DNA of 64,000 bases. Origin: Dehalococcoidia bacterium. Lineage in GTDB: Bacteria; Chloroflexota; Dehalococcoidia; Plut-88900. The stretch lies in NCBI GenBank assembly GCA_965197645.1, contig OZ240219.1:2048001-2112000 (forward strand), in the 5' to 3' direction. The stretch's first letter is position 1. The number at the start of each line of letters is the position of its first letter. A program made the translations under genes and the position numbers. The notes under the pieces were generated by a model. It saw only the letters and a program-made list of their open reading frames with translations, had not been told where the DNA came from and ran no database searches. Shown one piece after another: positions 6,062 through 24,925 of this stretch.

Positions 6062-6067
6062 TATAAT
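6062..6067 (+). promoter_or_regulatory. -10 box TATAAT, probable leaderless promoter of the transglutaminase operon
   Basis: Perfect TATAAT 6 nt before ATG 6074; no Shine-Dalgarno in between. Confidence 0.5.
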
Positions 6068-6073
6068 GGGCGG

Positions 6074-9000
6074 ATGAAGAGCATGTTTCGGAGGGTCAGG
6101 TCCCATTTCGCCCTGCTTCTTGTCTTGGCGGTAGTTCTTGGTGGCTTGCTCTTCCTCTTCGAGCTTTTTGGCGGGCTCACCAGCGACGGCCCCAAGGACC
6201 TGCTAACGACCAACGACTCCGCCGACTCAACGGCGGAGATGCCAAGCGGTGCCCGCCTCATCGCATTGTTGACACCGGGTATGTTTGTCCTGCTGGGTAT
6301 CGGGGCGCTTGCGCTTCTTAGGCGGCGGCTGAAACACGGACACGGGCGTAGATGGGCTCCCGTCCTGCTGGGAGCGATGGCGGTGGGACTATTGGGGTCG
6401 GGTGTGTACCTGTCGGTTGGCACGGTACTGGGCGGAGTGGATGACGGTGGACATTCGGTCGCCACCGAGTATGTGACGCCCCTGGGACTGACGCTGCTAG
6501 CGGCGTTCATAGTGACCGTCGGTGTGGTGGCCGTTACGAAGCCCCGGCTCTTACCTATACCCCTGATTGCGTGGCTAGTTCCCGCACTGATATTCGGCAT
6601 GTTGGGCTCAAATGCCATAGCCGGGATGAATCTATTCAACCATCATTCGAAGGTGGAGACGACGCAAGGCTACGAGAATGCGGTAAACGTGTACTGGCAG
6701 GCTGGAGTAGGGCCCCCTGCAGAAGAAGGGCAGCCGGGTAACGTTAGTGATACGGGTTCACTAACGGGAGCGGAGTACCACGTCAACGCCTTGTTACACG
6801 GAACTCCCGAGGAAAGAGCCGAAGCCGTATCTGAACTAGTAAGGACGCCCGACCCGGCCGTAGTACCTCCTCTTGTCCAGGCACTGGGCGACAGTGACGA
6901 GGAAGTCACTACGGCAGCAAGAGAAGTCCTTCAGGAGGCATTGGAGAGCGACGATCCGGAAGTGAAACAAGCAGCAGAGTCGGCGCTGGTAGAGGCGTTA
7001 GGAGATGGGGACCTGATTGTGAGGGCCGCGGCAGAAAGGATCATGGAGGAGGGTGACAATTTCATCGCACTGTTGGAGAGTGGTGGGGCCCTGGTCTACT
7101 TGAGTGACCGGGTGTATTGGGCGCCGGGGACAACTACCGACACAGCATCGGAGCCGGCAACGATCGCCGTATTCGAAGTGACTGGAGCGAGTGCGACGGG
7201 CTACCTTCGTGTAGATGTCGGGGATGAATACACGGGACAGGGCTGGGTCAGACTCGATCCGGTGGAACTCTCGTATCCGGCCAGGACGCCGACACAACGG
7301 CTGGTTTACTCCAACGTAATCGAAGATGAGGCCTTGGAAATCCTTCCGCGGCAAGATGCAGCAACTGCGTTGCTGGCCTGGCCGGAAAGCTCGGCTGAGG
7401 AGACGCTAAAACAACGAATTACCATTTCAGCCCCCGAACAGGAACAAAAAGTGCCTGCAGGCTCAGTGCCGACTTCCATCGGTGCGGACTTCTTCGATGC
7501 CGACGGGCGCTATAGACCTTTCAGCGGCACATTCTCGACCGACCAGGAAGTCGAACAGTATGGGTGGACGTCCACCGTACACCGGTTCTCCGAAGATCAA
7601 CTGCGGGGTGCACAGACTTTTTCGGATTCCGCCGCCCTTGCGCTGCCGGAAATCGTAACCGAAAGGGTACGTCTGCTAGCCGAGGAAATCACCGGAGAGC
7701 ACGCTTCACCGTATGAGAAGGCCAGGGCCCTGGTCTGGTACCTGCGGGAGACATACGAATACGAGTTCGTGTCGGAGGATGATGAGGCCTTGCCGGAAAA
7801 CGGTGATGCAGTCGATCGGTTCCTCTTTGAGACCATGAAGGGCACGTGCGGCGATTTCAGCAGTGCGTTCGTGGTGCTTGCCAGGTCGGTGGGGATACCT
7901 GCGCGCGTGGTGTCGGGGTGGGTAATTGAGGAAAACGCAGAGCGGCAAACGGTCTACACGGACCAAGCGCATCAGTGGGCAGAAGTGGCATTCGAAGAGC
8001 TGGGTTGGCGGCGGTTCGAGCCGACACACATTAACGGCCCCCCTTTCCGCGCCCAGGTGACTGAGGTCTGGGAAGACGAGCTGCATCGTTTGGAAGAAAA
8101 GCTCTTCAGCAGACCTGACCCGGGCGAACGCATAGACGCTGTTGATGACCTGGTGGAATATTCGACAAAAGCGCCGTCTGAATTGAGGGATGTCAGTAGT
8201 CTATTGATCGGCGCATTGGGCGGTGACGAGGCGGTGGAGGTTCGGGCCAGGTCCGCCGAAGCCTTGGGAGACAAAGCTTATTGGAATGCACGACATGCCC
8301 TGATTACTGCTCTCTACGAGGATGGTGCGGAAGAGGTGAGGGCCGCCTCGGCAGAAGCTCTGGTAAAGCTACGTGGGGAGGATTCGGTGAGGGCGCTGAT
8401 CAGAGCGTTGCAAACGGACGAGTCCCCAAAGGTCAGAACCATCTCAATCGCCGGTCTGACGGAGCTGAAAGACCTGAGGGCGATCGGACCGATACTCGGG
8501 GCCCTTTCAGATCCAATCGAGGAGGTGCGGGAAGCGGCAAAGGCGGCATTGAAGGAGCTCGGGGCCACGGTAACCGAATTGGAGGGCGGTGGGCGGACGG
8601 CCCTAGTCGAAGGTCAAGCGATAGCGTTCAATCCAAGCACAACGACGGCGCAGGCGCAAGAACCGCCGCAGAAAGCGTTATTCGAGGTCACGGCCACAGG
8701 GGCAATCAGCTATCTAAGAACGGGAGTGGGAGACATCTACGAAGACGGGCGCTGGACGCAGACCGACCCGGTTGAGGCGTCCTTTGAAGCCAATGAGCTG
8801 CTGGTGGCAGTTGAGAGATTGGCGTCGGGCAGAACAGATCGGCGACCACCACCAAGCTCATCCCTTGCTCCCCATCTGGCTAGCGAGAGCACCTTAATCA
8901 CTGTAAGAATTTCGCCGTTGAATTCCGGCGAGGTCATCTCGGCCGGCGTGATTCCCGCCCCCGAGGGCATGCGTATTGTGTCTGAGCCGGGCGTGTACAT

Positions 9001-12000
9001 GCCGTACAGCAGTACGGTTCGCATTAATGACGTAGCAAGTGAAGTGCTGTGGACAGCCAGAACGGTGGAGTACGACGAAGATATCCTAACGGAGGCGCAG
9101 CCATACGATGACCCAGCGTACACGCAGCTGCCGGGGAGCTTGCCGGAACAGATCGGGGAGCTGGCGAGGCGGATTACCGAAGGCCATGCGGGGACTTACG
9201 CGCAGGCGGTGGCGATACAGGACTACTTGAGGCAGAGCTATTCATATGCCTTCGCGGCGCCGGGGGCTGCCGGCCCTCCGGCAAGTCAAGACCCTGTGGA
9301 CTGGTTCCTGTTCGACAGCCGACAAGGGACGTGTGGCCAGTTTAGCAGCGCGTTCGTCGTGCTGGCGAGGTCGGTAGGTATACCGGCGAGAGTTGTATCG
9401 GGCTGGACGATTGGCCGGACCGATGCCACGCAGACCGTCTATGCCCACCAGGCGCATCAGTGGGCGGAGGTGGCACTGGATGAGATCGGATGGGTGCCGT
9501 TGGAGCCTACGGCACAGGGAGCTCCATCTCGTACGCCGGACTTCGACTCCGGTGAAGCGGGAAGCGAGCTGAGCGATGAGAGTGACGGGTCCACGGATGC
9601 AGACGATACGACGACAATCCCACCGGAGGACTCCCAGGCGATCAGTGACAGAGTCGCTGAGAACCTGGATATCCTCGGTGAAGACAGTGGTACGGGACTG
9701 CATGATCTGAACCAACTCCTTGGGGACACGAGGCCGGGATATGGAGAGGCGGCCCGAGAGCTTCTGGAGCAGCAGGGGGCCTCTGTTACCGAGTTGGAGA
9801 ACGGGACCTCGCTGGTGGTATTCGAAGACCAGGGTTACTGGGTCCCCGGCACCACAACTTCGCAAGCTCCGGGACTGGCCCACAACCCGATCTTTCAGGT
9901 CCGCGGCGCGGCCCATACAGGCTACCTGCGGACCGCGGTGGGCGACCTCTACGAGAACGGCAAGTGGCGTCAGCTCCACCAGGCCGGATTCTGGGTCTTG
10001 CCAGGTCAGAACGTGCCGCATGCGGTACGGAAGGAGATGGCAAAAGAAAATGGCGCGTTCTCCGGCATTCCGCCTGACCGGCTTGCTGTCTCATTGTTGG
10101 CCGGCTTCCAGACGACACCCGTAGAAATACACACAGACGTGATCCGTATGAACCCCATCGGCGAGCAGCAGTACTTCCCCGATGGGACGTTACCGACTTC
10201 CCTGCACGTGCAAAGCATCGATACCTTGTCATGGTTTTGGGCCCACAACTTGACCCTCGGTTCTGCGGATCCGGTGTCGGGATACATTTGGACTTCGAAA
10301 GTCCCCTACTACTCAGAAACACAGCTAATTGCGGCAAGGGCCTCGTCAGACCCGACGTACACCCAGCTGCCTCTGAGCGTTCCGGACAGGGTCCGTCAAA
10401 AAGCGCTGGAAGTAACTCGAGGCTTCAACGGTCCCTATGGAAAGGCCAAGGCGCTGGAGCGATTTCTCAGCACAACTTACGCTTACGCGTTCGCAGATTC
10501 GCCCGGAGATGCGCCCCCCGCAGGCCGGGATCCCGTGGACTGGTTCCTGTTCGATCATCAGGAAGGGACGTGCGGAGTGTTTAGCAGCGCGTTCGTGGTG
10601 ATGGCGCGATCGATAGGCATTCCGGCCCGTGTGGTGTCAGGGTGGATGATATCCGATTATCCTGGCACGCAAACGGTGTTCACCGACCAGGCCCACCAGT
10701 GGGCGGAGATAGCGTTGGACGGAATTGGATGGCTAACCATCGAACCGACGGCGGCAGGAGGAGCGCCTAGCCGGGTAAGCCGTGCCGGTGGGGCTTCCAC
10801 AGGTTCTTCGAGCGTGCAGATAAAGCGCGGGACCGTAACAGAGATAGATCAATGGCCTACGGAGACGCGAAAGGGAATACCGTTCACCATAGGTGGTTCG
10901 GTGCTTACACTATCGGGCAATCCGGTGAATGGGATCGAGGTAGAGGTATTCGTCAACGAGGAGAAGGAAAATGGGGGGTGGAGGCTCGGCACGACTACGA
11001 CGGAAGCCGGCCGCTTTGAGATTGAGGTCACAGTGCCGACCAGCTTCGAGCCGGGAAGCTACCAGTTGATAGCCCACGCAATTGACAACGAAGCCTTTGA
11101 AGGTTCGTGGAGCGACCCGGAGGTAGGGGTCTACTCCGGGACCGAGTTGATATTCAGCGGCCCCACAGAGATTTCGGTGGACGTCAAGGGGATCTTCCAC
11201 GGGACGCTTACGGAGGAAACTGGCGGGTCCTTGGGAGGCCGCATGATTCAAGTGAGGGTTGAAGGTGAATCTCCATTCCAGGTGACCACCGACAACGGTG
11301 GAGAATTCGGCTTCACAAGGACATTCGAGCAGTCGGGAGAAAGAACAGTGGAAGTATCGTTCGATCAAGAAGGGTACTTCCTGAGCAACGAGGCACGGCT
11401 GGACATCAGGGTCACGATGCCAACGGTCTTGAGCATTGACGCAGTGGACCGGATACGGGTGGGGGAGGAGTACAAAATTCGGGGTAGATTGCGGGATGTG
11501 CGTGGCGAGGGACCATCTTCGAAGCAGATCAAAGTAACCCTACCGAGTGGGGAGGTGGTCTCGGCCGAAACCGACGTTTTAGGAGCCTTCACGGTGACAG
11601 GTATAGCGGACCAACCGGGAATGTATGGCCTGGAGGCTTCGTTCGGAGGCGACGGAGTCCTGGAGCCCAGCAAGACGGGATATACCCTTCTGATCATCAA
11701 TCCCGTCGTCCTGGAGCTGAGTGGATACGACAACGTCCGGATCGGTGAGGAATACGTGGTTAGAGGGACGCTGAAGGACAGTCGAGGTACACCACTGGCC
11801 CAGTCGGAGGTCCTCCTCACTATGCCGGAAGGGGTGACCTCGGTTCTGACGGATGAGCAGGGCGCGTTCGAAGTTTCGGATACGACAGACCAACCGGGCA
11901 GATATGATATCGAGGCGTCTTTTGCCGGAAACAATCTTCTGGAGCCGGGCAGCGCCGCGCATATCTTGAGCGTGGTCGAACCGGTCAACCTGGACCTATC

Positions 12001-13855
12001 GGGGGAACCGGTGGTGCGGGTTGGCGCTCCGTACCGGATGGAGGGAACGCTTTCCAGTGTCCGGGGTCAGGTGCTGGAGGGGCACACTCTGATCGTCAGT
12101 ACGGGTCCGGATGAGACGGTGGAAGTGGTCACCGGACCACTCGGATCATTTGCTTGGGAGACGACGTTCGAGGAGGAGACAGAAACGGCGTTCAAAGTCA
12201 GGTTTGCGGGCACGGACGAGTTGGAGCCAGCCCAGGCCGCGCTCTCGGTGAAGGTTGGAAGAGTACAGATCGTGGTGGAAGACCCGGAGCCCGTGGCCCG
12301 GGGCAGCACCCTGACCCTGAGGGGGGTTATGGAGCTGAGCGGTCAAACCGTTCCCGACGCCATCGTCTCGGTGAACGGGGAGCAGTCGGCGGCCACCAAT
12401 GCAGTAGGGGTGTTTGTGGTGCGGGTACCCGTGGATACCGATGCCGAGCTGGGCGAAATGGAGTTCACGGTGTTGGCGGTAGACCTGGAAGCGGAGACGA
12501 TGGTCTCGGTGCAGGTCATGTCGACGACTAGCTTCCTGGTTACACCGCAGGATGACGTGAAACCCGGTCGGCCCGTTCTCGTCGAAGCGAGGCTGCTGGA
12601 CGATTTCGGCATGGGCGTCCCGGGCGTCGCTGTCAAGTACGGCGAGACCGGTCGGTCGGTAACGGATGAATTCGGTGCAGCGTTACTGACGGTCGATGTA
12701 CCCGACGAGGACGACCTCTCTATCGTGCCCCTCAGGGTGAGCTATGAAGGAGATGAAGCCAATTTCCCGGTATCCTATCTGGCGACTCTGCAGATCCAAA
12801 AAGGCGGTTCGGGTTGGCTGATCTGGGCGCTCCTGCCAGTTCTGCTTATCCTCGGTCTTGGAGGCGGCTATCTGGGCGGTCGCAGGTTTGGGAGACGGAC
12901 CGTACTGGCATCCGTCAGGGCCTCAGCTCCCCCAACAACCATTTCAGCACCTCAGGCCCCAGTTGAGCAAGCGTTGGAAGAGGCATTTCTGGAGATGGGA
13001 TTTGTAGACCAGTCACCCGAGGCCCGAGATGCGTGGCAGGTGGGGGAGCGGGTGCAAATTCGGTGTGTGCTGAGCGACGGTGTGGGAAGGAGGATAGCGG
13101 AGGCTGAAATACGGGTGGAATGGGGAGATGGCGACTCGGTGGTGGAGCTGGTAACGGATCGAAAGGGTGAGTGCTCAGCGTCGTGGACGGGGAATGAACC
13201 GGGCCTGTACCAGGTGAAAGGGGAGTTCGCAGGCACGGGCCGATACTTGTCGGCTGAAGCATCGCTGAGTTTCGAGATCAGGCTGTTGATGCCGACGCGT
13301 CTTGAAGTCATTTTCGCCAAGCCAGCAGACGACCTGCCGCCGGTATGGGGCGTCGGCGAAGAAGTACGGGTCGCCTTTGCACTAACGGACGATGCGGGAC
13401 GTGGGCTGGAGGGACGCCCAATTCGGGTAGCAATTGGGGACGCGGGGGAAACGAGGGAGTTGACCTCCGGCAATGACGGTCGCTGCGAGTTGGTCATGAC
13501 CGGGGAGACACCGGGTGAGTACAGGGTGGAAGCGGAGTTCCAAGGGGACGAAGGACATCTGCCCTCAGACGCCCGAGACCGGTTCGAGGTTGTTGAGTTC
13601 AGGGACGATGTGGTGCGAAGGTACAATGCGTTCTTGGCAGGGGTTCGGGAGAAGGTATCCGGGATCTCCCCGAAAGCAACTCCTCGGGAGGTGGAGTCCA
13701 TAGTCGTCGCGCGTGGCCTACCGCTGGACCAGAGGGCATTGGAGGAGCTTATTGCCCGGTTCGAAGAGGCGGACTACAGCGAGCACGAGATAGCCAGGCA
13801 GCAGTTCGAGGCGGCATACCGGGCCTGGCGACGGCTGGAGAAGGAACAGGAATAG
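6074..13855 (+). CDS. Giant membrane protein: 5 TM, HEAT repeats, three transglutaminase-like domains, Ig-like repeats, TM, DUF4129-like C-terminus
   Basis: Three copies of GTCGxFSSAFVVxARSxGIPARVVSGW...HQWAE...EPT (Cys at aa 592, 1087, 1500); HEAT motifs such as VRAASAEAL; ~93-aa beta repeats (GTLxD..G..L); C-terminal TPRE...FEEADYS. Confidence 0.9.
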   Translation: MKSMFRRVRSHFALLLVLAVVLGGLLFLFELFGGLTSDGPKDLLTTNDSADSTAEMPSGARLIALLTPGMFVLLGIGALALLRRRLKHGHGRRWAPVLLGAMAVGLLGSGVYLSVGTVLGGVDDGGHSVATEYVTPLGLTLLAAFIVTVGVVAVTKPRLLPIPLIAWLVPALIFGMLGSNAIAGMNLFNHHSKVETTQGYENAVNVYWQAGVGPPAEEGQPGNVSDTGSLTGAEYHVNALLHGTPEERAEAVSELVRTPDPAVVPPLVQALGDSDEEVTTAAREVLQEALESDDPEVKQAAESALVEALGDGDLIVRAAAERIMEEGDNFIALLESGGALVYLSDRVYWAPGTTTDTASEPATIAVFEVTGASATGYLRVDVGDEYTGQGWVRLDPVELSYPARTPTQRLVYSNVIEDEALEILPRQDAATALLAWPESSAEETLKQRITISAPEQEQKVPAGSVPTSIGADFFDADGRYRPFSGTFSTDQEVEQYGWTSTVHRFSEDQLRGAQTFSDSAALALPEIVTERVRLLAEEITGEHASPYEKARALVWYLRETYEYEFVSEDDEALPENGDAVDRFLFETMKGTCGDFSSAFVVLARSVGIPARVVSGWVIEENAERQTVYTDQAHQWAEVAFEELGWRRFEPTHINGPPFRAQVTEVWEDELHRLEEKLFSRPDPGERIDAVDDLVEYSTKAPSELRDVSSLLIGALGGDEAVEVRARSAEALGDKAYWNARHALITALYEDGAEEVRAASAEALVKLRGEDSVRALIRALQTDESPKVRTISIAGLTELKDLRAIGPILGALSDPIEEVREAAKAALKELGATVTELEGGGRTALVEGQAIAFNPSTTTAQAQEPPQKALFEVTATGAISYLRTGVGDIYEDGRWTQTDPVEASFEANELLVAVERLASGRTDRRPPPSSSLAPHLASESTLITVRISPLNSGEVISAGVIPAPEGMRIVSEPGVYMPYSSTVRINDVASEVLWTARTVEYDEDILTEAQPYDDPAYTQLPGSLPEQIGELARRITEGHAGTYAQAVAIQDYLRQSYSYAFAAPGAAGPPASQDPVDWFLFDSRQGTCGQFSSAFVVLARSVGIPARVVSGWTIGRTDATQTVYAHQAHQWAEVALDEIGWVPLEPTAQGAPSRTPDFDSGEAGSELSDESDGSTDADDTTTIPPEDSQAISDRVAENLDILGEDSGTGLHDLNQLLGDTRPGYGEAARELLEQQGASVTELENGTSLVVFEDQGYWVPGTTTSQAPGLAHNPIFQVRGAAHTGYLRTAVGDLYENGKWRQLHQAGFWVLPGQNVPHAVRKEMAKENGAFSGIPPDRLAVSLLAGFQTTPVEIHTDVIRMNPIGEQQYFPDGTLPTSLHVQSIDTLSWFWAHNLTLGSADPVSGYIWTSKVPYYSETQLIAARASSDPTYTQLPLSVPDRVRQKALEVTRGFNGPYGKAKALERFLSTTYAYAFADSPGDAPPAGRDPVDWFLFDHQEGTCGVFSSAFVVMARSIGIPARVVSGWMISDYPGTQTVFTDQAHQWAEIALDGIGWLTIEPTAAGGAPSRVSRAGGASTGSSSVQIKRGTVTEIDQWPTETRKGIPFTIGGSVLTLSGNPVNGIEVEVFVNEEKENGGWRLGTTTTEAGRFEIEVTVPTSFEPGSYQLIAHAIDNEAFEGSWSDPEVGVYSGTELIFSGPTEISVDVKGIFHGTLTEETGGSLGGRMIQVRVEGESPFQVTTDNGGEFGFTRTFEQSGERTVEVSFDQEGYFLSNEARLDIRVTMPTVLSIDAVDRIRVGEEYKIRGRLRDVRGEGPSSKQIKVTLPSGEVVSAETDVLGAFTVTGIADQPGMYGLEASFGGDGVLEPSKTGYTLLIINPVVLELSGYDNVRIGEEYVVRGTLKDSRGTPLAQSEVLLTMPEGVTSVLTDEQGAFEVSDTTDQPGRYDIEASFAGNNLLEPGSAAHILSVVEPVNLDLSGEPVVRVGAPYRMEGTLSSVRGQVLEGHTLIVSTGPDETVEVVTGPLGSFAWETTFEEETETAFKVRFAGTDELEPAQAALSVKVGRVQIVVEDPEPVARGSTLTLRGVMELSGQTVPDAIVSVNGEQSAATNAVGVFVVRVPVDTDAELGEMEFTVLAVDLEAETMVSVQVMSTTSFLVTPQDDVKPGRPVLVEARLLDDFGMGVPGVAVKYGETGRSVTDEFGAALLTVDVPDEDDLSIVPLRVSYEGDEANFPVSYLATLQIQKGGSGWLIWALLPVLLILGLGGGYLGGRRFGRRTVLASVRASAPPTTISAPQAPVEQALEEAFLEMGFVDQSPEARDAWQVGERVQIRCVLSDGVGRRIAEAEIRVEWGDGDSVVELVTDRKGECSASWTGNEPGLYQVKGEFAGTGRYLSAEASLSFEIRLLMPTRLEVIFAKPADDLPPVWGVGEEVRVAFALTDDAGRGLEGRPIRVAIGDAGETRELTSGNDGRCELVMTGETPGEYRVEAEFQGDEGHLPSDARDRFEVVEFRDDVVRRYNAFLAGVREKVSGISPKATPREVESIVVARGLPLDQRALEELIARFEEADYSEHEIARQQFEAAYRAWRRLEKEQE

Positions 13856-13861
13856 GCGGGG

Positions 13862-16003
13862 ATGAAGACAATTGAACGGTTGAGGGTCTCAGCGGCACAC
13901 ACGATCGCAATTGTCATTGCGGCGTGGGCGTTGTGGACGTTGCAACTGCTGGTACCGCCGGAAACGGAACTCCAATTCAGGACCCTTCTGGGACCTGTGC
14001 TGGCCGCGGCTCTGGTCTCTTTACTTGTAAGCCTCCTGCTCTGGACTCAGGGACGAGAAGGCTGGCGGCGAGTTCTAAAACTTCCGGACCAGTTCAACAC
14101 CAAGCTCTGCTTTGCTCTGTGGGTTCTTGTGCGTCTGCTGAGGGTCGGGGCCTGGTTGGCTATAGTACTGAGTGTAGGCCTGTCCTTTGCCAGTACACGG
14201 GCCGAACCGGGCACTTACTACTATCTGATAGGTGGATTGGCAGGAATACTTGCATTTGTGGCGCTGGTTCGGGTGTCGAGCATACGGTTCCCGGCCGCGA
14301 GTCTGATCTTTCCTGTGCCTTGGGTGCGCCTTGGAGCGTTCATCACGATATACCTCTTGTTGCATATCGACCGGTTGACCGAGCACGGTTTTCCCAATAG
14401 CCAGCTGATACTTGCTCTGTGGACTGCATTGTCGGCCAGCTACGCCGGCGACACCCTGGGAAAGACGGCGGCGATCGTGGGAGAGATGGAAGAGCCTAAA
14501 TGGTGGCTGCCACCACCAGCGTTGCTCCGAAGGGCTTCCGCCCTCTTGGTAGGGACGAGCGCGGGGCTGATTGTGTGGGGGGCTCTTAGCTCCCTCCCCA
14601 ACGTGAGTGCCCTATTGCTGAACGAATGGCCTCGACTTCTGATCGGATACGCTACTCAACCTTACTTCAGCCAGTTCTACGAGGCGAGGCACTTGAGCGC
14701 AGCATTCGTTGCCGGGCTGTACTTCGTGATCAAGTTGCCTCCAGGGGAGGCCGTAGCTGACAGAGTAGACTACAGGCCGCTGGCCAAAGCGGTTGGATAC
14801 AGTGTGGTTGGGGCGGCGGCCTGGCTGATAGGGGACGAGTTGGCTGACCTGGGGCACGGGTTTCCGTTAGCGGCAGCGGCGATTGCCTGCGGATTCTTCG
14901 CAGCAGGACTGTCTCACATGGCCCGATACCACATCTCCAGTTCCATATGGGTACTCAGTGCAACGGCTCGGCTCCTGTCGAAATCGGTCTACAGGACCGC
15001 CATGTTGGGAGTCTTCCTGGCCATGTACGGTCTTCTCGTCCGGCCCTTGGTATACGACGTGATGTGGTTTGCGCCGATCTATGAGTGGGTTGCGGTGGTG
15101 CTGTTCGCCGTGGTCGCGATAAACCGTATGAGAGGCCATACGAGGACCCAGGTGCTCCCGGAGGGAGGGCCACCGGCAGACTGGCCGCGCTGGTCCAGGC
15201 ATGTTCAAACTGTGGAGCAGCGGCCGGACACGCGCTTCGAAGGTCTGTTGGACCTTCAGAAACGTTACGTGGACACGGGAAGATGGGGTTATCTTTGGAG
15301 GTACATGCTGGGACTGCTCCTTCGAAACCGGGCGCCGCTGGACGCTATTCCAGGGGTCTTCGAGCCGATGAGGCGCGGTTTCGAGGACTCGCTCAAATGG
15401 GACCCCTTGCCTCGAAGAGGAGTGAGGGCCAAACGGCGGCGGGATTCGGCTCTCACCGAAACGATGAGTCGGATGGACGCTGCCCTTGCCAAGGGCCCCG
15501 AGCCTCTTCCGGAAATCAGTGAGGAGCGGGTGAGGTCGGTGGGACAATCCTTTGTGGAGGATGGGGCACGACCCGAGCTCTTGGCCGTCACAATGGCGTC
15601 AGCCTATTGGCAAAAAGGCGCGCCCCTGGACCTGGCGGTGAGTTTCTGGTTTCCCCTGCTCACAATGACCAAAGGAGTCAGACTGGGACTGTTCTCCCTG
15701 GTCAGGTCCGGCGAAAGATCTGGGCTTGAACAAAAGAAGCGGCGGCTGCGAGTATTGGATGCGGCGATCTCTCACTTGTTCAGGGGAGGAACGGCCAATG
15801 AGCTGCCCCTGGGGGTTTTAGCGGACCCCGCGCCCGTCTCCGACCGAGCCGGGGGCTATGTCACTTCGGATATTCCGGAAGGTCAGGCTATAGAGGTGCT
15901 TTCGGAGGATGGTGGGTGGTGGAGAGTGAGGACAGGCGATGACCAGAAGAGCTTTATGACTCCGGCGGACGCCGTGCGGCGGCGGATACTGCCGGGAGAC
16001 TGA
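13862..16003 (+). CDS. Polytopic membrane protein with soluble C-terminal region ending in an SH3-like domain
   Basis: About 12 hydrophobic segments; C-terminal IPEGQAIEVLSEDGGWWRVRT; starts 6 nt after the upstream stop. Confidence 0.75.
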   Translation: MKTIERLRVSAAHTIAIVIAAWALWTLQLLVPPETELQFRTLLGPVLAAALVSLLVSLLLWTQGREGWRRVLKLPDQFNTKLCFALWVLVRLLRVGAWLAIVLSVGLSFASTRAEPGTYYYLIGGLAGILAFVALVRVSSIRFPAASLIFPVPWVRLGAFITIYLLLHIDRLTEHGFPNSQLILALWTALSASYAGDTLGKTAAIVGEMEEPKWWLPPPALLRRASALLVGTSAGLIVWGALSSLPNVSALLLNEWPRLLIGYATQPYFSQFYEARHLSAAFVAGLYFVIKLPPGEAVADRVDYRPLAKAVGYSVVGAAAWLIGDELADLGHGFPLAAAAIACGFFAAGLSHMARYHISSSIWVLSATARLLSKSVYRTAMLGVFLAMYGLLVRPLVYDVMWFAPIYEWVAVVLFAVVAINRMRGHTRTQVLPEGGPPADWPRWSRHVQTVEQRPDTRFEGLLDLQKRYVDTGRWGYLWRYMLGLLLRNRAPLDAIPGVFEPMRRGFEDSLKWDPLPRRGVRAKRRRDSALTETMSRMDAALAKGPEPLPEISEERVRSVGQSFVEDGARPELLAVTMASAYWQKGAPLDLAVSFWFPLLTMTKGVRLGLFSLVRSGERSGLEQKKRRLRVLDAAISHLFRGGTANELPLGVLADPAPVSDRAGGYVTSDIPEGQAIEVLSEDGGWWRVRTGDDQKSFMTPADAVRRRILPGD

Positions 16004-16018
16004 CGCCGGGGAGGCGGA

Positions 16019-17020
16019 ATGGACAAGAGCCAGAGTCAATTGGCGGTTGAACAGGCAGGACCTCTTTGTGAAAGTATCATAGACCGGGTCTCGGAAGTTT
16101 TCGTCGGGAGCCGCCTCGTGCTGCGGAAACTGCTGGCGGCGGCCCTGGCCAACGGCCACGTCCTGTTCGAGGACTACCCGGGGCTGGGGAAGACACTGCT
16201 GGCTAAAGTATTCACCAAGGCCATCGGAAGTGAGACGCAAAGGGTGCAATTCACACCGGACATGCTGCCCGCCGACATCCTGGGGGCGAAGGTATGGCGG
16301 CAGAACAGTGGCGTGTTTGAACTGATCAGAGGACCCGTATTCACCAACGTGCTGCTGGCCGATGAGATCAACCGCGCTCCCCCGAAGACCCAGGCTGCGT
16401 TGCTGGAGGCGATGGAAGAACGACAGGTCACCATCGATCGGGATACCCTGTCCCTGCAACCGCCCTTCCTGGTAATCGCCACCCAAAACCCCATAGAGCA
16501 GGAGGGAACTTATCCGTTGCCCGAGGCCCAACTGGACAGGTTCCTGTTCCGGCTCGGGACCGGATACCCGACGAACCAGGAGCAAGAGAGCAGGATTCTG
16601 CATCGGCGCATCCAGTGGCGGAAGGATGATCCGACCGAAGATCTGGACCCTGTGCTCGACGCCGAGAGTTTCGTCAGATTGCAGCGAATCGTCGAGACAA
16701 ACGTGTACATAGACCAGGTGATGATCGACTACATTACCCAAGTAGTGCGCCTGACGCGGGAGCATCCCCACGTAACCCTCGGAGTAAGTCCTCGGGGAAG
16801 CCTGGCGCTTCTGAAATTGTCGAGGAGCATGGCGCTTATCAACGGCCGTGACTTCGTGATCCCGGACGACGTGAAGGCGATAGCCGGGGATGCGCTCGGG
16901 CACCGGATCATCCTGAACATCGAGGCTACCCTGCAGGGAATGAGGCCGGAGTCGGTGGTCGAAGACGTGGTGGAACAGGTGCCGGTCCCGACCGAGCTGG
17001 GCCGTAGAGACGCCGGCTAA
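16019..17020 (+). CDS. moxR: MoxR family AAA+ ATPase
   Basis: Walker A PGLGKT, RVQFTPDMLPAD, LLADEINRAPPKTQAALLEAM, ATQNPIEQEGTYPLPEAQLDRF. Confidence 0.97.
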   Translation: MDKSQSQLAVEQAGPLCESIIDRVSEVFVGSRLVLRKLLAAALANGHVLFEDYPGLGKTLLAKVFTKAIGSETQRVQFTPDMLPADILGAKVWRQNSGVFELIRGPVFTNVLLADEINRAPPKTQAALLEAMEERQVTIDRDTLSLQPPFLVIATQNPIEQEGTYPLPEAQLDRFLFRLGTGYPTNQEQESRILHRRIQWRKDDPTEDLDPVLDAESFVRLQRIVETNVYIDQVMIDYITQVVRLTREHPHVTLGVSPRGSLALLKLSRSMALINGRDFVIPDDVKAIAGDALGHRIILNIEATLQGMRPESVVEDVVEQVPVPTELGRRDAG

Positions 17021-18354
17021 TGCTCTCCGCTCTTCCCGCCAACTGGTTGGCGCTGTCGTTCCTACTCCTGTCCATTGCCTTGGTATTCGGAAACCCGATT
17101 CTGCTGGCGGGTGCGGTATTCGGGTTGCTGTTTGTTCTGTTGGCGACACTGCTGACACCCCCGAGTGGCATTGAAGTGGAACGGGAGATGACACGAGTGG
17201 TGTGTTGGGCGGGGGACAAACTGGAAGTCAGGCGAAGGGTGAGGGTCAGGTCGGGGGTTGGGATGCTCTATGTGCACGATGAGCTTCCCGCGGAAATGGA
17301 GGTGGTGGAGGGGAACAATCTACGGGCAGTATGGAAGTGGCCCGGGGCCAAGAGTTTCGACCTTCCCTATGAGTTCTTGTGCCCCAAGAGAGGCCTCTAC
17401 ACCCTGGGGGAGACGGCATGGAACGCGGAGGGGCCCATAGGACTTCAGCGTCGAAACCAGGGGACGGCCGGTGAACCGCAGGAGTTCTCGGTGATGCCGC
17501 GATTTCAGGCGGTGCATCGCGTAAAGGAAATTCGTGCCAGGGCGCATACACGCTACTTCCGAACGGACGTGACTCCGCTGGGCCCGTCAACGACGGATTT
17601 CAAAGAGCTTCGACCATATTCTCCCGGAGACCCGATGAGCATCGTCAATTGGAAGGCAAGTGCACGAAACTCCTATGGCGCCAGCCCACTGCTGGTCAAC
17701 CAGTACGAGTCGGAGGGCAGGAAGGCGATCTGGATCTTCGTGGACGGGGCCGAGTACATGGATGTCGGGACGTCCCTGTCGTCGTTGGTAGACCATGCCG
17801 TAGAAGCTGCGGGCAGCATAGCACAATACTACCTGTCCCGGGGGTATACGCTAGGGGCATACATATACAACACCCCGAACGATGTCCTCACTCCGGACCT
17901 GGGCCAAAAACAGTTCAAGCGCCTGACCGATATGCTCACAACGCTCCAGCCAGGGCGAGCTACCCAGGACCTGCCGGAGGCGGTGGAGAGGTGTAAGAGC
18001 TTCCTTTACCGCCTTCAGCCCGAGGTGTATGCCATCACCCGGCTGGATGCACACTACCCGCGCAGCGGGGTTGGAGCCCCATCCATAGATAGCTTCATTG
18101 CCGGGATACAACGTCTGGTGGCGCTGAGATCCAGGTCCCGAAGCCTGAACCCCGTCAGGGTGGTCCACTTGGAGTCGGCGGGAGTCAGGCAGGGGGAAGC
18201 CGCCATGGCATCGCGAACGCAAGACCTGATCCGGTGGGAAGCCCGCACAATACTCAAGCCTATCCGGGACGTTGGGGCTTCGGTCGTGGCGTGGAACCCA
18301 ATGGAACAGGACTTCACCACTACGCTTATGAAACACATCTACTTCGGGACGTGA
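17020..18354 (+). CDS. DUF58 domain protein (vWA-like MoxR partner) with 2 N-terminal TM
   Basis: FKELRPYSPGDPMSIVNWKASAR motif; TAATG overlap with moxR. Confidence 0.92.
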   Translation: MLSALPANWLALSFLLLSIALVFGNPILLAGAVFGLLFVLLATLLTPPSGIEVEREMTRVVCWAGDKLEVRRRVRVRSGVGMLYVHDELPAEMEVVEGNNLRAVWKWPGAKSFDLPYEFLCPKRGLYTLGETAWNAEGPIGLQRRNQGTAGEPQEFSVMPRFQAVHRVKEIRARAHTRYFRTDVTPLGPSTTDFKELRPYSPGDPMSIVNWKASARNSYGASPLLVNQYESEGRKAIWIFVDGAEYMDVGTSLSSLVDHAVEAAGSIAQYYLSRGYTLGAYIYNTPNDVLTPDLGQKQFKRLTDMLTTLQPGRATQDLPEAVERCKSFLYRLQPEVYAITRLDAHYPRSGVGAPSIDSFIAGIQRLVALRSRSRSLNPVRVVHLESAGVRQGEAAMASRTQDLIRWEARTILKPIRDVGASVVAWNPMEQDFTTTLMKHIYFGT

Positions 18355-18358
18355 TCGG

Positions 18359-19057
18359 ATGGTGCAATTACGGGTTGTAGAGACGGGGCTTCTGGTCTAC
18401 CTGTTCGGGATGGCCGCATGGGTAATATGGCAGACCGGGGGCGCGGCGGTGGACATCGATAAGGGATGGGAGTGGATTTCGGATGTACAGGAATGGGAAG
18501 ACTGGGGATCAACGGTGTTCGCCCTGATCCTGGCCGCTATCGTTCTGGTGCCGATAGGGTTGTACTGGGGGCTCCAGGCTCGAGGTAAGCATCGGGTGTC
18601 GTTCTGGATGGTAAGCACGCTTGCTCTCGCGCCGCAAATGCCTGCTGCGCTCTCATTCAATCGAGTTGACTGGCTGTCCTTCTGGAAATACCCGATGTTC
18701 ACGACGACCATTCCCCAGTCAGTGGTGGCGTTGCTGTTGTTGGTGTCGCTGTTGATTCTCTTAGTATTGCACAGGGCTGGAGATCTGAGACGGCTGAGGG
18801 AAAAGCTGTCGGAGCTGGGATTGGAACGAAAAGAGCGTGGCCTCGTAGTGAGGAACGAGGCCCTGATACTGGGGGCAATTGCCGCAGCTAACCTGGGGAT
18901 AACGGGTGCTCTGTTGACGGCAGGGATGGCCTTGTCGGAGCTGGGAGGTCCCTTGGAACAGTCTCCGTGGCCGGTTGTCAGTATCGGGGCGGTGGCAATA
19001 CTGCTGCTTGCGGTAATCATGGCGCTATGGGTGAGACGGGCTGGCCCTTCCCACTAG
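18359..19057 (+). CDS. Membrane protein (~6 TM), last gene of the operon
   Basis: Hydrophobic segments; 4 nt after the DUF58 stop. Confidence 0.75.
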   Translation: MVQLRVVETGLLVYLFGMAAWVIWQTGGAAVDIDKGWEWISDVQEWEDWGSTVFALILAAIVLVPIGLYWGLQARGKHRVSFWMVSTLALAPQMPAALSFNRVDWLSFWKYPMFTTTIPQSVVALLLLVSLLILLVLHRAGDLRRLREKLSELGLERKERGLVVRNEALILGAIAAANLGITGALLTAGMALSELGGPLEQSPWPVVSIGAVAILLLAVIMALWVRRAGPSH

Positions 19058-19164
19058 CCGGCAACGAAGGTGAGCGATGATTGGACTTAACATTTTCCGT
19101 GTTGGGGGAAGCTAGGCTAGGAGTCGATCGTGACAGCAGAAGTAAGGGAGCAAACGGCACAGAT

Positions 19165-19385
19165 TAGAAACGTGAACGTACGTTGGGCGCATGTTGTTGT
19201 TGAAGGACATACCCTGGTGCAGGTTCAGCGCTTTGTTCAACTTCCGTGAGCTCGTCGAATACCGTGTCAGTCAGCACTAGAGTGCGCTCCTGACTCGACC
19301 CAGCCACCAGATGCCTCAGCTTGCAGATCTAGGCCGCGCCGGTCATCTTTGGTATCGGGGAGTCCAGGACGATTGTCACTTGGAC
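19165..19385 (-). pseudogene. Possible decayed response-regulator receiver fragment
   Basis: Minus-strand VTIVLDSPIPKMTGAA*ICKLR...LVLT...GYVL loosely matches the receiver consensus; internal stop. Confidence 0.3.
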
Positions 19386-19592
19386 ATGAAACGCGTCGCT
19401 CGGACCTCACTGTCTACGTGCCTGTTGTGGAGTAACTCAAAGCCTTGCGCAATGAGCCGTTAGGCGTAGTCATCATTCGACTACGAGCCAAGCAGATATA
19501 TGGGGCTCTAATGCCTTGCAGCTAACTCACCCGAATCCTAATTTGGGCACCGGTACCTGACCTTAAATGGGCACGACATACTGAAAAGTTCG

Positions 19593-19622
19593 CACTTGGG
19601 TACAGGGTGGGATACCCAAGTG
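19593..19622. repeat. Perfect 10-bp inverted repeat CACTTGGGTA-N10-TACCCAAGTG
   Basis: Read directly; two nearby TGGGCAC repeats at ~19544 and ~19568. Confidence 0.6.
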
Positions 19623-19776
19623 AGCTGGAACGTCCAAACGGAATCCTACCCATCTGTGTCCGTCAACCAGATGCGTCCAGTAAGCCGGGGCGAGTTACTC
19701 CAGTTACATTCTTGGGCGAAGGCCTGATGTCCTGCCTTGTCAGGTAACTGATTGGTACGTTTACTTTCGGCGTATT

Positions 19777-19854
19777 TTTGTGGTAAGCATTGTGGGAATG
19801 CATGCCAAATTGTAGCTGTTTCACACCTAAGTTCGAATCCCACCCTCTCCGCCA
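19777..19854 (+). repeat. att-like site (copy 2) with intact tRNA-Ser 3' end GTTCGAATCCCACCCTCTCCGCCA at 19831-19854
   Basis: T-loop, acceptor strand CTCTCC, discriminator G and CCA, but no 5' half. Preceded by direct repeats TGTGGTAA/TGTGGGAA. Confidence 0.85.
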
Positions 19855-19970
19855 TCAACCCTGCCAACTCTACCTTCTGTCGTTTCTTCCTGCTCTCATT
19901 TCATAGCTAATTCACACTCTTTGGTTCCTATTCGTCCCGTATACATCTCCTCTTATTCCGCCTCACATGT

Positions 19971-20113
19971 GAGCCTGTCTCAGAACCCTGCTTTGAGAGA
20001 GTCCAGAGGGAAACTTCCCTCTGGCAGGGGGCCTGGAGGATGTTCCCCCAGCTACAAAACCTTCCGAGGGCGGGTGGTTGGGACTAAGACGTACGTACTT
20101 TTGAGACAAGCTC
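19971..20113. mobile_element. 143-bp MITE with 15-bp terminal inverted repeats and 4-bp target duplication
   Basis: GAGCCTGTCTCAGAA ... TTTTGAGACAAGCTC (13/15), flanked on both sides by ATGT (19967-19970, 20114-20117). Confidence 0.85.
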
Positions 20114-20500
20114 ATGTAGGAACGTTTCGTTACTGAGGAGAACTTGCGACGCTATCGGCGACGCGGGTCTAGGCCTCAAAGAAACCGGGGAGATAATCCG
20201 ACGGCGGAGGCTTGCATCTATATGCGGCTGGGCACTCATTTTTGAGTCCACAGAGACGTTCTCAGTTCAATCGTTAGGTAGTACGGGGACTAGGGCCCAA
20301 CCCCGGTATGTCCTTTCGGAGCCGAACTAGGAGTTTGTGGCCCGACGCACCACTGCCAGTTTCGCCCTATCTCGGATGTGCGGTTCCTACCAAGGCCACC
20401 GGCTTTCCCGTCCAGCGAAGTAGAAAAGAAGGCAGGATTTGTGCAAAACAGTACAATGGAAGACGAATAGCGCGCTAAGAGACGGTTCCCATGCGCGCAT

Positions 20501-22606: not shown

Positions 22607-23353
22607 TCAACTCAAGTCCCTGAGAGGGGCCACGCTGAATATAACCGAGAAGGGCTTGCAGTAGATCACAACGCTCATCTGCGCGGTGACGTCCACTCCG
22701 TCGGGCACCTCGTAGTTCTGATTGCCGATGTTACCCTTCAGCCTTCCGAGGTCGTGGTAGCCGCCGTCCTTCACTTCGCTCCGAGTCGTCGGATCGTTGT
22801 GCGCCGATAGCAGAACGTGAAGCTGCGGCCCGTTGGTGACCTCGAAGTCCTCCAGCCGGATAACATGGGAGCCGTCCGGGCCACGATAGACTGCTGCCGT
22901 GCCGCTGCCCTTGTGGAAGCTGTCCTGGTCCCGGAAATTACCCTCCTTCAGCTTTATGGCCTCCCCGCTGCCTTCCTCCATCATCTCGGGCATGACCTCC
23001 GCTACCGGTTCGTTGTCCATCTTAGACATGGCAGCCATTGTCATCTCGATGTCCTCCCGCTCCATGTCGGCGGGCACGACTGCCGAGTATGCGAAGGGGA
23101 ACTCCTCTTCGACAGTCTTGCTGAGGAACAGTGGGGATCCAAGGTCCCAGGCTATGAATCCGGCCACGACCAGCAGTGGCGTGCCGACGATGATAAAGGG
23201 CCGCTTGTGCTTCCAGACCACCATATGCCACCGGCGCCGGCGGACGTAGAACCCTATCGCTGCGAGTACCGCCACGACACCAGCTAGGATCGGCCACCGG
23301 TACGGGTAGAGGTCGGCGGCGAGCCGTTCAAGATCCCCGAAGAACTCAGCCAT
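22607..23353 (-). CDS. DM13 domain membrane-anchored protein
   Basis: Two TM, then HKGSGTA...RLEDFEVTNGPQL...LGRLKGNIGNQNY...VVIYCKPFSV. Confidence 0.92.
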   Translation of the reverse strand: MAEFFGDLERLAADLYPYRWPILAGVVAVLAAIGFYVRRRRWHMVVWKHKRPFIIVGTPLLVVAGFIAWDLGSPLFLSKTVEEEFPFAYSAVVPADMEREDIEMTMAAMSKMDNEPVAEVMPEMMEEGSGEAIKLKEGNFRDQDSFHKGSGTAAVYRGPDGSHVIRLEDFEVTNGPQLHVLLSAHNDPTTRSEVKDGGYHDLGRLKGNIGNQNYEVPDGVDVTAQMSVVIYCKPFSVIFSVAPLRDLS

Positions 23354-23704: not shown

Positions 23705-24925
23705 TCAAGGTTGTGCGGACGGGGTTGGTTGATCCTCGGGTGGGGTTGGGGCGTACCCCACCATTTCCACGAAACCTCGGCCCGCTACAGGCGCTCCGTC
23801 CCTGGTTCCCACCGCCGAGACAGACCCCTCCCAGTAGACCACAGGGATAAAAGCGCTCAGGGCGAATTCCGCCTCCTCCATCGTGGGAGTCAGCGTCAGG
23901 TCCAGCTCCAGTGAGTCGACTCGCAGTTTCCAGCTCATGGGGTAGACCGCCCCTGTGACAGGGCTGGTCCAAGTTCCGGTGGAGTCCAGGGAGATGTCAT
24001 CGCCGGGCAGATGCAGCGGCACGGAGTCGGCCGGGACGTAGGTACCGTAGGCGGCGATGGGCTTGTGCCCGTCCTGTTCCCACACCATCGAGACCGTGAG
24101 GTCGGAGCCATCGTCCAAGTTGAGGCTTAACCAGTCCCAACCAATGTCGCTAATCGTGAATTCGCCCCACTGATGGTCCATCCAGGAAACTCCTGAGACA
24201 GAGTGGGAGACGCCGGAAACAGAGACGGTGCCGGAGGTCTCCAGCCGAGTACGGGAGTAGTAGAAGGTCTTACCTGCTATACCCAAGTCCACTAGCCCGG
24301 TGCCGTAGTGGAGCACGGCGGGTTTTAGCGAATCCGCTTCCAGCTCTACCGTGTAGTCCCCAGCCGCGAAGCTGAGATGGTACACCTCGCCGTTGCCACT
24401 CATCCGCCAGTCCTCCGTGGACAAATCGAACTCACCCGACGACTGCTCTGCCAGGGGAAATACAGCCTTCTCCTCGGTCAGGTGCAGCCCTTTGGCGTGA
24501 TCGGCCCAACTTAGCTGCGCCAATCGCGATGTCAAGTTGAAGGGCAGCAGGGATTGAAAAGTGACGAAGTGATAGCTGAACTCCTGATCGTTCTCCGTCG
24601 TCAGGTGGCCGTTGAAGTACCACCACTCCAGGTCGGACAGATGGGGCCCCTCGTCGTGGGGCAACCGGACCGTACCTTCCGGTGCAGCGGTCACGGTGGC
24701 CGGGAGGGCCGTGGCCGTGGGTACCGGATCTGGAGACGACTGAGGAGCGGGAGATGGCTCTGGAGATGGAGACTGGGCGGGAGTGGTGATCGGTGAAGCA
24801 GCTGCCTGAGGGGTTGATCTCGGAGCGTCATCGGCTGCGCCGGAACATGCCAACGCAACAATGATTGGCAACATCAGCCCGAAGCGAGGTGAAAGCATTC
24901 GTACCAGGTAGGATATAAGCATCAC
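23705..24925 (-). CDS. CrtC/AttH-like lipocalin-fold lipoprotein (predicted secreted hydrolase/hydratase)
   Basis: Lipobox ALAC; EWWYFNG, YYSRTR, WMDHQWG, GWDW, YWEG, GFVEM. Confidence 0.88.
   Translation of the reverse strand: MMLISYLVRMLSPRFGLMLPIIVALACSGAADDAPRSTPQAAASPITTPAQSPSPEPSPAPQSSPDPVPTATALPATVTAAPEGTVRLPHDEGPHLSDLEWWYFNGHLTTENDQEFSYHFVTFQSLLPFNLTSRLAQLSWADHAKGLHLTEEKAVFPLAEQSSGEFDLSTEDWRMSGNGEVYHLSFAAGDYTVELEADSLKPAVLHYGTGLVDLGIAGKTFYYSRTRLETSGTVSVSGVSHSVSGVSWMDHQWGEFTISDIGWDWLSLNLDDGSDLTVSMVWEQDGHKPIAAYGTYVPADSVPLHLPGDDISLDSTGTWTSPVTGAVYPMSWKLRVDSLELDLTLTPTMEEAEFALSAFIPVVYWEGSVSAVGTRDGAPVAGRGFVEMVGYAPTPPEDQPTPSAQP

Follow-up and report, generated by a model that had tools for sequence, protein, structure and literature searches.

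A five-gene cassette built around a giant membrane protein lies at positions 6074-19057 of a 64,000-nucleotide window from the genome of a Dehalococcoidia bacterium (contig OZ240219.1, positions 2,048,001 to 2,112,000 of the forward strand). All five open reading frames (ORFs) are on the plus strand, at 6074-13855 (2593 amino acids, aa), 13862-16003 (713 aa), 16019-17020 (333 aa), 17020-18354 (444 aa), and 18359-19057 (232 aa). The gaps between them measure 6, 15, -1, and 4 nucleotides (nt), the negative value marking the 1-nt overlap of the fourth gene's start with the stop of the third. A preliminary description of this DNA had spoken of five tightly coupled genes, and the same frames and gaps were recovered here. 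In order, the genes encode the giant, which carries a tripled transglutaminase fold resembling that of TgpA; a polytopic membrane protein of no known family (P0002), characterized through its ORF, hydropathy, and a structural model; a MoxR-type AAA+ ATPase (Pfam AAA_3, E 2.3e-62; AAA_lid_2, E 5.9e-22); a DUF58 protein (Pfam E 2.1e-12) with two N-terminal membrane helices by hydropathy; and a second membrane protein without a family (P0005), with about five helices by hydropathy and a homologue in 13/13 related loci. NCBIfam added no name for any of the five. The giant also exists as a 100% identical database cluster (P0006), whose 2590-aa sequence starts at the second ATG, at 6083. A TATAAT motif is found 7 nt upstream of the ATG at 6074 (window 6062-6083); translation may begin at either ATG, and the transcript may be leaderless.

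The giant is strongly modular. Pfam recognizes Transglut_core in three stretches (E 2.6e-75), HEAT_2 in three stretches, the immunoglobulin (Ig)-type families Big_1, CarboxypepD_reg, Big_3_5, MG2, and Filamin, and a terminal DUF4129 (E 1.7e-6). The protein opens with a polytopic anchor (aa 1-177; 6074-6604), in which hydropathy and sequence reveal five or six hydrophobic segments and clusters of Lys/Arg on alternate loops. A first set of HEAT-like repeats follows at about aa 231-340 (6764-7093), its approximate boundaries taken from Pfam HEAT_2, the sequence, and the BLAST repeat unit. Next comes module 1 (aa 346-660; 7109-8053), a beta-rich domain joined to a transglutaminase core and delimited by repeat alignment and a hidden Markov model (HMM). 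Module 2 (aa 851-1155; 8624-9538), supported by Pfam, repeat alignment, and HMM, is separated from it by a second set of HEAT repeats (aa 661-850; 8054-8623), where Pfam places HEAT_2 best at 711-794 and HEAT at 806-830 and PADLOC reports HEAT-ARM at 661-832. An acidic linker with a short helical stretch, read from the sequence and of low conservation (18-56%), occupies aa 1156-1255 (9539-9838) ahead of module 3 (aa 1256-1570; 9839-10783), the best-conserved module. Behind the modules are seven Ig-like repeats (aa 1580-2234; 10811-12775), found by an iterated HMM and by Pfam Big_1, CarboxypepD_reg, MG2, and Filamin. A sixth membrane helix (aa 2249-2267; 12818-12874), identified from hydropathy and sequence, is followed by GGRRFGRR, by two more Ig-like repeats from the iterated HMM (aa 2314-2499; 13013-13570), and by the DUF4129 tail (aa 2516-2586; 13619-13831), whose alignment has the core motif RFEEADYSEH. 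The succession of about seven Ig repeats, a membrane helix, two further Ig units, and a DUF4129-like tail had been outlined in the preliminary description, as had the threefold repetition of one module. The three copies are complete; the repeat units (aa 286-656, 775-1151, and 1207-1567) align over their whole length and are pairwise 39-40% identical (BLASTP E 1e-66 to 1e-79).

The fold of these modules connects the giant to TgpA. Module 3 (aa 1250-1575) was modelled by AF2 with an alignment of 40 modules, yielding a pLDDT of 92.6 and a pTM of 0.91. When the model was compared with the PDB by Foldseek, the periplasmic domain of TgpA was the top match (6g49, E 3.3e-15; 6g4h, E 2.0e-14), with alignments of 310-321 columns to targets of 278-288 residues and TM values of 0.56-0.66 (6g49: 310 columns, TM 0.56/0.63). 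The next matches, a putative cysteine protease (3isr) and animal transglutaminases, were far behind, with E 6e-7 and weaker. A phmmer search of solved structures matched TgpA as its sole sequence (6g49/6g4h, E 1.3e-13, core only). As the model aligns with 6g49/6g4h over this length, each module represents the whole TgpA periplasmic domain, beta-rich part and core together, and more than a catalytic core.

Catalytic residues are present in all three window modules. These are Cys592, His633, and Glu649 in module 1, Cys1087, His1128, and Glu1144 in module 2, and Cys1500, His1541, and Glu1557 in module 3, with each His in an AHQW motif and each Glu in EPT, in agreement with the earlier statement that the three cores keep Cys, His, and an acidic residue. 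The 2071 residues of the giant that are predicted to lie outside the cell contain only three Cys, and these are the three catalytic ones; the remaining three Cys of the protein are all found behind the last helix. Because no other Cys occurs in the outside part, this restriction is read as a sign that the residue has been retained for catalysis.

TgpA of Pseudomonas aeruginosa is described, in the available portion of PMC3507681, as a 688-aa protein with six membrane helices, a periplasmic domain at residues 180-544, and Ca-independent transglutaminase activity in vitro. Its gene is co-transcribed with PA2875 and PA2874 and is reported to be essential (PMC3507681, same portion). As in that operon (PA2875 MoxR, PA2874 DUF58, PA2873 TgpA), the gene for the giant is linked to MoxR and DUF58 genes. 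The two proteins also share a polytopic N-terminal anchor, an outside domain beginning near residue 180 (about 178 in the giant), an additional helix, and a tail at the C-terminus; in each, a transglutaminase core is part of a periplasmic-type domain. Pfam content, operon, and fold all agree with the kinship to MoxR-DUF58-TgpA neighbourhoods put forward in the preliminary description. The giant differs from TgpA in having three such domains instead of one, in its length of 2593 aa against 688, and in its added HEAT spacers and Ig-like repeats, seven of the latter predicted outside and two inside. Because the module model matches the whole TgpA periplasmic domain, the giant amounts to a TgpA in triplicate, extended by HEAT spacers and an Ig stalk, and the cassette, a self-contained and optional unit in Dehalococcoidia and some further Chloroflexota, is an enlarged TgpA-type system. 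A literature search, with subscription journals outside its coverage, found among the papers listed no published description of multi-transglutaminase HEAT giants of this tripled architecture or of the five-gene cassette; the TgpA system itself is known but unexplained.

The PFNA cluster of Bifidobacterium is a second relative of the cassette. It too comprises five genes (pkb2, fn3, aaa-atp, duf58, as well as tgm); the parts of PMC8430577 and PMC6803598 that were available indicate that both units bring together a MoxR ATPase and a DUF58 protein with a transglutaminase-like membrane protein and with Ig-type repeats borne by a large surface protein. Among the five genes and in the scanned flanks, no Ser/Thr kinase (Pkb2) or fn3 family turned up. 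In contrast to PFNA, the cassette has its Ig-like repeats fused to the enzyme and not on an FN3 protein of their own, carries three catalytic domains, and has different membrane partners. Organisms carrying the cassette are known only from metagenome assemblies and have no host on record, which also sets them apart from PFNA.

In the giant, hydropathy detects five or six segments within aa 14-177 and a single one at aa 2249-2267. Clusters of Lys/Arg are located at the N-terminus, in loop 81-96, at aa 158-161, and after helix 2249-2267, and the two remaining short anchor loops contain two and zero positive charges. The clusters RRRLK, KPR, and RRFGRR, on which the preliminary description had based its layout, were found in the sequence where it had placed them. 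From this positive-inside pattern, and from the agreement in fold with TgpA's periplasmic domain, aa 178-2248 are predicted to lie outside the cell, exposing the enzymes, the HEAT repeats, and the seven Ig units on a chain anchored at both ends. The tail, with its two Ig-like units and DUF4129, is predicted to be cytoplasmic, as are MoxR and the body of the DUF58 protein. The earlier layout is upheld for the enzymes, HEAT repeats, seven Ig units, and anchored ends; the amendment is that the two C-terminal Ig units and DUF4129 fall inside.

Giants of this type are numerous. A word-indexed protein search covering lengths of 1426-4538 aa returned 220 proteins at E <= 0.001. Cores were counted with an HMM built from the three window cores in 121 proteins, namely the query, its database copy, and 119 relatives among the matches listed, of which 77 have three cores, 24 have four, and 20 have two. 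Many two-core proteins (1878-1892 aa) constitute the second half of a split gene, amounting to about a dozen such clusters. Splits in relatives yield proteins of 822 or 804 aa plus 1895 aa (loci L009 and L010) or of 957 plus 1551 aa (L042), and in L008 the gene is broken within module 3. Among the matches listed, only one has a name, 'HEAT repeat domain-containing protein [Chloroflexi bacterium]', and the ten homologue clusters that were looked up have no protein names on record. The preliminary description had put the normal number of catalytic domains in such neighbourhoods at one, and had named as a refutation a triple architecture that is already described and widespread. The multi-domain form is in fact widespread, as 121/121 long proteins have two to four cores, which answers the second half of that condition; for the first half, the literature search found no description.

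The gene order is equally persistent. A genome scan identified 13 loci titled Dehalococcoidia bacterium and one weak Anaerolineales locus, and the order giant-P0002-MoxR-DUF58-P0005 is kept in 13/13 Dehalococcoidia loci (tblastn; blastp on ORFs), whose flanks have no further ORF in common. Three further loci, picked from 35 matching genomes as the best matches outside the family plus one from another class, encode three cores each and preserve the same five-gene order (3/3). A survey of copy number and gene order, as proposed in the preliminary description, has thus given two to four cores per protein and an order kept in 16/16 Chloroflexota loci overall. The five-gene grouping is not a chance pattern, since the same order recurs in 13/13 and 3/3 loci.

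Conservation is unevenly distributed over the cassette. By blastp across the 13 loci, identity to the window proteins is 69-89% for MoxR, 46-82% for DUF58, 30-66% for P0002, and 28-69% for P0005. Within the giant, compared with ten unsplit relatives, it is highest in the DUF4129 tail (47-80%) and module 3 (48-69%), followed by the N-terminal anchor (28-60%), the first HEAT repeats (10-46%), and the first Ig unit of the tail (4-51%). The RFEEADYSEH core of DUF4129 is identical in 14/14 sequences. In distant relatives the tail is reduced to a single Ig unit and DUF4129, only the second of the two tail Ig repeats being retained.

In a maximum-likelihood tree of 40 modules, the copies cluster by position and not by genome. 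First modules from close relatives are united in a clade with support of 100/100, and all last modules fall in one 14-row clade with support of 93/89, which includes two lineage-specific duplicates from the four-module proteins of L015 and L018. The tree accommodates the position labels with 7 changes, compared with a mean of 19.2 under shuffling, and 0/200 shuffles were as low. This grouping by position indicates that the tripling is older than the sampled lineages and that fourth modules are later duplications. In the set of 40 modules, two adjacent HMM matches were merged into one row in five proteins; the set excludes the modules of L013 (coordinate filter) and, from L008, the third module, which is broken. 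His is present in 40/40 modules, the acidic residue is Glu in 28 and Asp in 12, and Cys is kept in 29, with Ala (7), Ser (3), or Asp (1) in the others. In the last module, Cys is kept in 12/12 proteins.

The partner proteins differ in how well they can be placed. MoxR has readable PGLGKT and LLADE motifs, and with bpMoxR it reaches 26.1, short of the 27 required. The DUF58 protein begins with a helical hairpin by hydropathy and reads D-G-A-E-Y at the position resembling the metal site of von Willebrand factor A (vWA) domains, the Asp alone being conserved across the cassette's DUF58 proteins. P0002 has one weak, sub-threshold Pfam match, to SH3_3; NCBIfam gave nothing, Atlas had no usable match, and no Pfam family was found in the eleven relatives scanned. 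Out of 1.84 billion clustered proteins, a profile of 14 P0002 sequences retrieved no more than 290 representatives at E <= 0.001, with 96 of them at <= 1e-30. In the P0002 model (pLDDT 87.2, pTM 0.60), residues 1-431 form the helical membrane part and 457-640 a helical domain, with a disordered link between them (432-452), and a small beta domain follows at 650-699. Foldseek recognizes just this beta end of about 60 residues, as an SH3 fold, and a profile search of the PDB found SH3 domains only, at E 0.2-0.6. SH3_3 matches 5/57 members of the P0002 family, and DUF4350 matches 0/57 at E up to 0.1. A relationship of P0002 to generic helical bundles was considered and rejected, as the best VIA-align Z of 9.9 is within the background for helical models. 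For P0005, no Pfam family was found at E 0.01, and relaxing the threshold gave only FtsX at E 0.024; its Atlas matches score 0.82 at most and are unnamed. The cassette therefore defines two membrane-protein families without annotation, P0002 and P0005.

The genome containing the window is a single contig of 3.21 Mb, 94.5% complete by marker genes, and encodes three MoxR-DUF58 pairs including that of the present cassette. One of the others (locus L040, 1471000-1480000) has the classical order, in which an 862-aa membrane protein carrying one Transglut_core comes after MoxR-DUF58. The third (L041, 1493500-1503500) consists of MoxR-DUF58, a 513-aa DUF4129 protein without a transglutaminase, and then four tandem arginase-family genes. 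DUF4129 is thus linked to the ATPase pair even where no enzyme is present. No match was obtained when a profile of the giant's tail was compared with the single-transglutaminase and DUF4129 proteins of the other two loci, and hhalign gave P0002 probabilities of 0.3% and 22.7% against these proteins, respectively.

From the observed domain make-up, fold, gene-order conservation, and distribution we infer a topology, a catalytic role, a type of substrate, and a coupling across the membrane. With a little better than an even chance, the giant is a multi-headed thiol enzyme that cross-links or cleaves surface proteins and is controlled from the cytoplasm via its DUF4129 tail. Anchored at both ends, it would display three TgpA-type domains outside the cell, spaced by HEAT repeats and borne on seven Ig-like domains. 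At least the last and best-conserved module may be an active thiol enzyme, and its action would be Gln-Lys isopeptide cross-linking or cleavage of cell-surface proteins; the other heads would add catalytic or binding valency. The DUF4129 tail, with one or two Ig-like units, could be the docking point for the membrane-tethered DUF58 protein and MoxR. It is proposed as such because it is the most conserved part of the giant and accompanies MoxR-DUF58 where the enzyme is missing. MoxR and DUF58 would then act as a chaperone or switch for the export, folding, or activation of the 2071-residue outside loop, and P0002 and P0005 might be cassette-specific membrane subunits that complete the complex. 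A precedent comes from Mycobacterium tuberculosis, where MoxR1 assists the export of RipA, a papain-fold wall enzyme (as cited in the available part of PMC12067865).

Several observations weigh against an enlarged TgpA system acting as a surface enzyme. The giant gene is first in the cassette and not last as in the TgpA operon, and two extra membrane genes, P0002 and P0005, are present. The N-terminal anchor matches no Pfam family in the window protein or in 11 relatives. The corresponding family of TgpA, DUF3488/TgpA_N (PF11992), is listed for one relative (P0089) and was not matched at E up to 1 in the anchors of the window protein and the 11 relatives. The acidic residue of the triad is Glu in all three window modules and in 28/40 modules, as opposed to Asp in TgpA. 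The predicted topology derives from hydropathy and charge read by hand and not from a dedicated predictor, and Ig-like repeats of one family flank the last helix on both sides, an odd arrangement for a simple division into inside and outside. Furthermore, Cys is lost in 11/40 modules: 8/13 first modules, module 2 of L015, and modules 2 and 3 of L018. Heads can therefore persist without catalysis, and extra heads can be non-catalytic. The three catalytic sets read in the preliminary description are intact in the window protein; its multivalent enzyme is not supported as worded, given the modules of relatives that have lost the Cys.

The distribution of the cassette adds to these difficulties. 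With P0002 as the cassette marker, and with the window's own genome included in every count, it was found in 3/401 genomes drawn evenly from the phylum, in 35/401 genomes and 11/222 genera of the class (with four weak partial matches, E 1e-11 to 1e-13), in 6/12 genomes of the window's order, and in 5/9 of the neighbouring genus. Those neighbouring-genus genomes that lack P0002 include single-contig assemblies that are 91-92% complete. In metagenome run X4, a 1061-nt contig joins window position 6166 to 19105 via 116 other letters, skipping all five genes, and other contigs of the same run carry the cassette, so presence/absence variation may exist within one community. Being patchy in the class and order samples, the cassette is accessory and dispensable, unlike tgpA, which is reported to be essential (PMC3507681, available portion).

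This patchiness argues against an essential wall-building role, which is unlikely. The earlier suggestion that the system builds a protein wall layer accordingly fits poorly with presence in 35/401 genomes of the class and 6/12 of the order and with a contig that skips the cassette. In the window's own genome, penicillin-binding protein (PBP) transpeptidases and FtsW/RodA gave 0 matches each and Mur_ligase_M gave one, as would suit a cell that lacks peptidoglycan. Absence of a peptidoglycan wall has been described for cultivated Dehalococcoides. In the absence of peptidoglycan synthase matches in the host genome, murein is an unlikely substrate. Modification of host proteins, another option of the preliminary description, was dropped because nothing points to host proteins.

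A bolder and quite unlikely form of the same proposal makes the cassette an ATP-controlled machine for stitching proteins. Here MoxR-DUF58 would pull on the invariant DUF4129 tail and thereby switch on the three transglutaminase heads outside on their Ig stalk, which would covalently cross-link or trim the protein surface layer of cells in which no peptidoglycan synthases were found. If so, a MoxR ATPase would for the first time be seen to control an extracellular enzyme mechanically from the inside out, and the entire unexplained MoxR-DUF58-TgpA class would gain a working function.

The loss of catalytic Cys raises the possibility that the giant is a surface binding scaffold or adhesin, whose heads, HEAT repeats, and Ig stalk bind peptides or particles, with catalysis secondary or absent and MoxR-DUF58 merely assisting assembly. 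Modules in which Cys is replaced by Ala, Ser, or Asp (11/40) have nonetheless conserved their length and fold signature, the number of heads varies from two to four, and the cassette is accessory. Inactive transglutaminase-like (TGL) domains have also been read as peptide binders by Zhang and Aravind (PMC3495828, in the part available). Such a scaffold is nevertheless unlikely, as the window protein keeps Cys and His in all three heads, with no other Cys among 2071 outside residues, and across relatives the Cys of the last module (12/12 proteins) and the His of every module (40/40) are invariant.

The patchy distribution could instead be that of a conflict or competition system, a mobile surface device directed against phages or neighbours with MoxR-DUF58 as its threshold switch. 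Presence in 5/9 genomes of one genus, the contig of run X4 that bypasses the cassette, flanks that differ between loci, and a variable number of modules would all suit such a device. According to the available text of Kaur et al. (2020; PMC7159879), MoxR-vWA pairs act as switches in ternary conflict systems, which resemble the cassette in combining MoxR with a vWA-like partner, in their patchy occurrence, and in a variable effector-like architecture. However, Pfam detects none of the third components VMAP, iSTAND, FtsH, and beta-propeller in the cassette, PADLOC reports just a generic HEAT-ARM, and bpMoxR scores below its cut-off (26.1 < 27). The partner here is a DUF58 protein with only the Asp at the metal-site-like position, and the term 'DUF58' does not occur in the main text of the conflict-systems paper as far as that text was available (PMC7159879). 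The flanks, as far as scanned, contain neither an integrase nor a phage gene, and the base composition of the cassette is in line with that of its surroundings. A role in conflict is hence also improbable.

Membrane-proximal, ATP-dependent degradation is a third alternative. In the model of Zhang and Aravind (2012), put forward for this three-gene association in prokaryotes, DUF58 recruits the substrate, MoxR unfolds it, and a TGL domain in a cytoplasmic loop cleaves it (PMC3495828, available part). The MoxR-vWA-YebA-like TGL operon on which it is built has the same three families and the same link to the membrane. MoxR and DUF58 are also the most conserved proteins of the cassette (69-89% and 46-82% identity). 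In contrast to the model, the charge pattern, read by hand, would place the three modules of the giant outside and MoxR inside. Long arrays of Big_1, MG2-like, and CarboxypepD_reg-like domains, typical of surface proteins, likewise count against degradation in the cytoplasm, which is very doubtful for this cassette.

The reading as a surface-exposed, cytoplasmically controlled thiol enzyme bears on a wider problem. MoxR-DUF58-transglutaminase operons are common in bacteria and archaea, and both their role and the relation of a cytoplasmic ATPase to an outside enzyme are unexplained. The Chloroflexota form sharpens the puzzle of TgpA, as its catalytic domain is tripled and the position-specific decay of its heads points to the last one as the working head. 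Its DUF4129 tail, predicted to be cytoplasmic and the most conserved part of the giant, suggests where coupling takes place. Natural genomes that have the cassette can be compared with others that lack it, and the same may hold for community variants.

An artefact of assembly or annotation has next to no probability: split giant genes in some relatives could partly reflect sequencing errors in those assemblies, yet the modules of the window are only 39-40% identical in protein, contigs of two studies run through them unbroken, and the same architecture is present in 13 other, independent assemblies. Misassembly of repeats and a non-gene frame were rejected on these grounds, within the reach of these data. 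At the DNA level, repeats between modules show just 68-75% identity over 90-137 nt, as the preliminary description had anticipated when it judged misassembly unlikely from their divergence. A 7625-nt contig spans 6160-13784 with 0 differences in the public metagenome run X1, which may be the source sample, and with 122 differences and 2 gaps in run X4, from another study. Within the MoxR gene (16241-16707), summed contig depth peaks in all four runs at 15.7-43.7, where the adjoining bins have about 2-9, and contigs are interrupted at 16150-16531, in a conserved ATPase stretch. The peak probably reflects a stretch common to paralogues or to other organisms of the community. No RNA run was listed for window 9100-19057.

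Promoter and terminator scans found fewer sites than in shuffled sequence, and window 1-26000 contains no Rfam family and no tRNA. The genes on either side, among them those for an RCC1/ankyrin protein, a permease, and a periplasmic binding protein, have no relation to the cassette. Just upstream, an open-ended 930-aa frame on the minus strand (window 1-2790) encodes ten RCC1_2 repeats followed by ankyrin repeats, a eukaryote-like composition. The 1.4 kb that follow the cassette (19058-20500) are devoid of ORFs of at least 80 aa. Further downstream, and likewise unrelated to the cassette, are genes for a DM13 domain protein (22607-23353) and a CrtC-like double-lipocalin protein (23705-24925), both on the minus strand.

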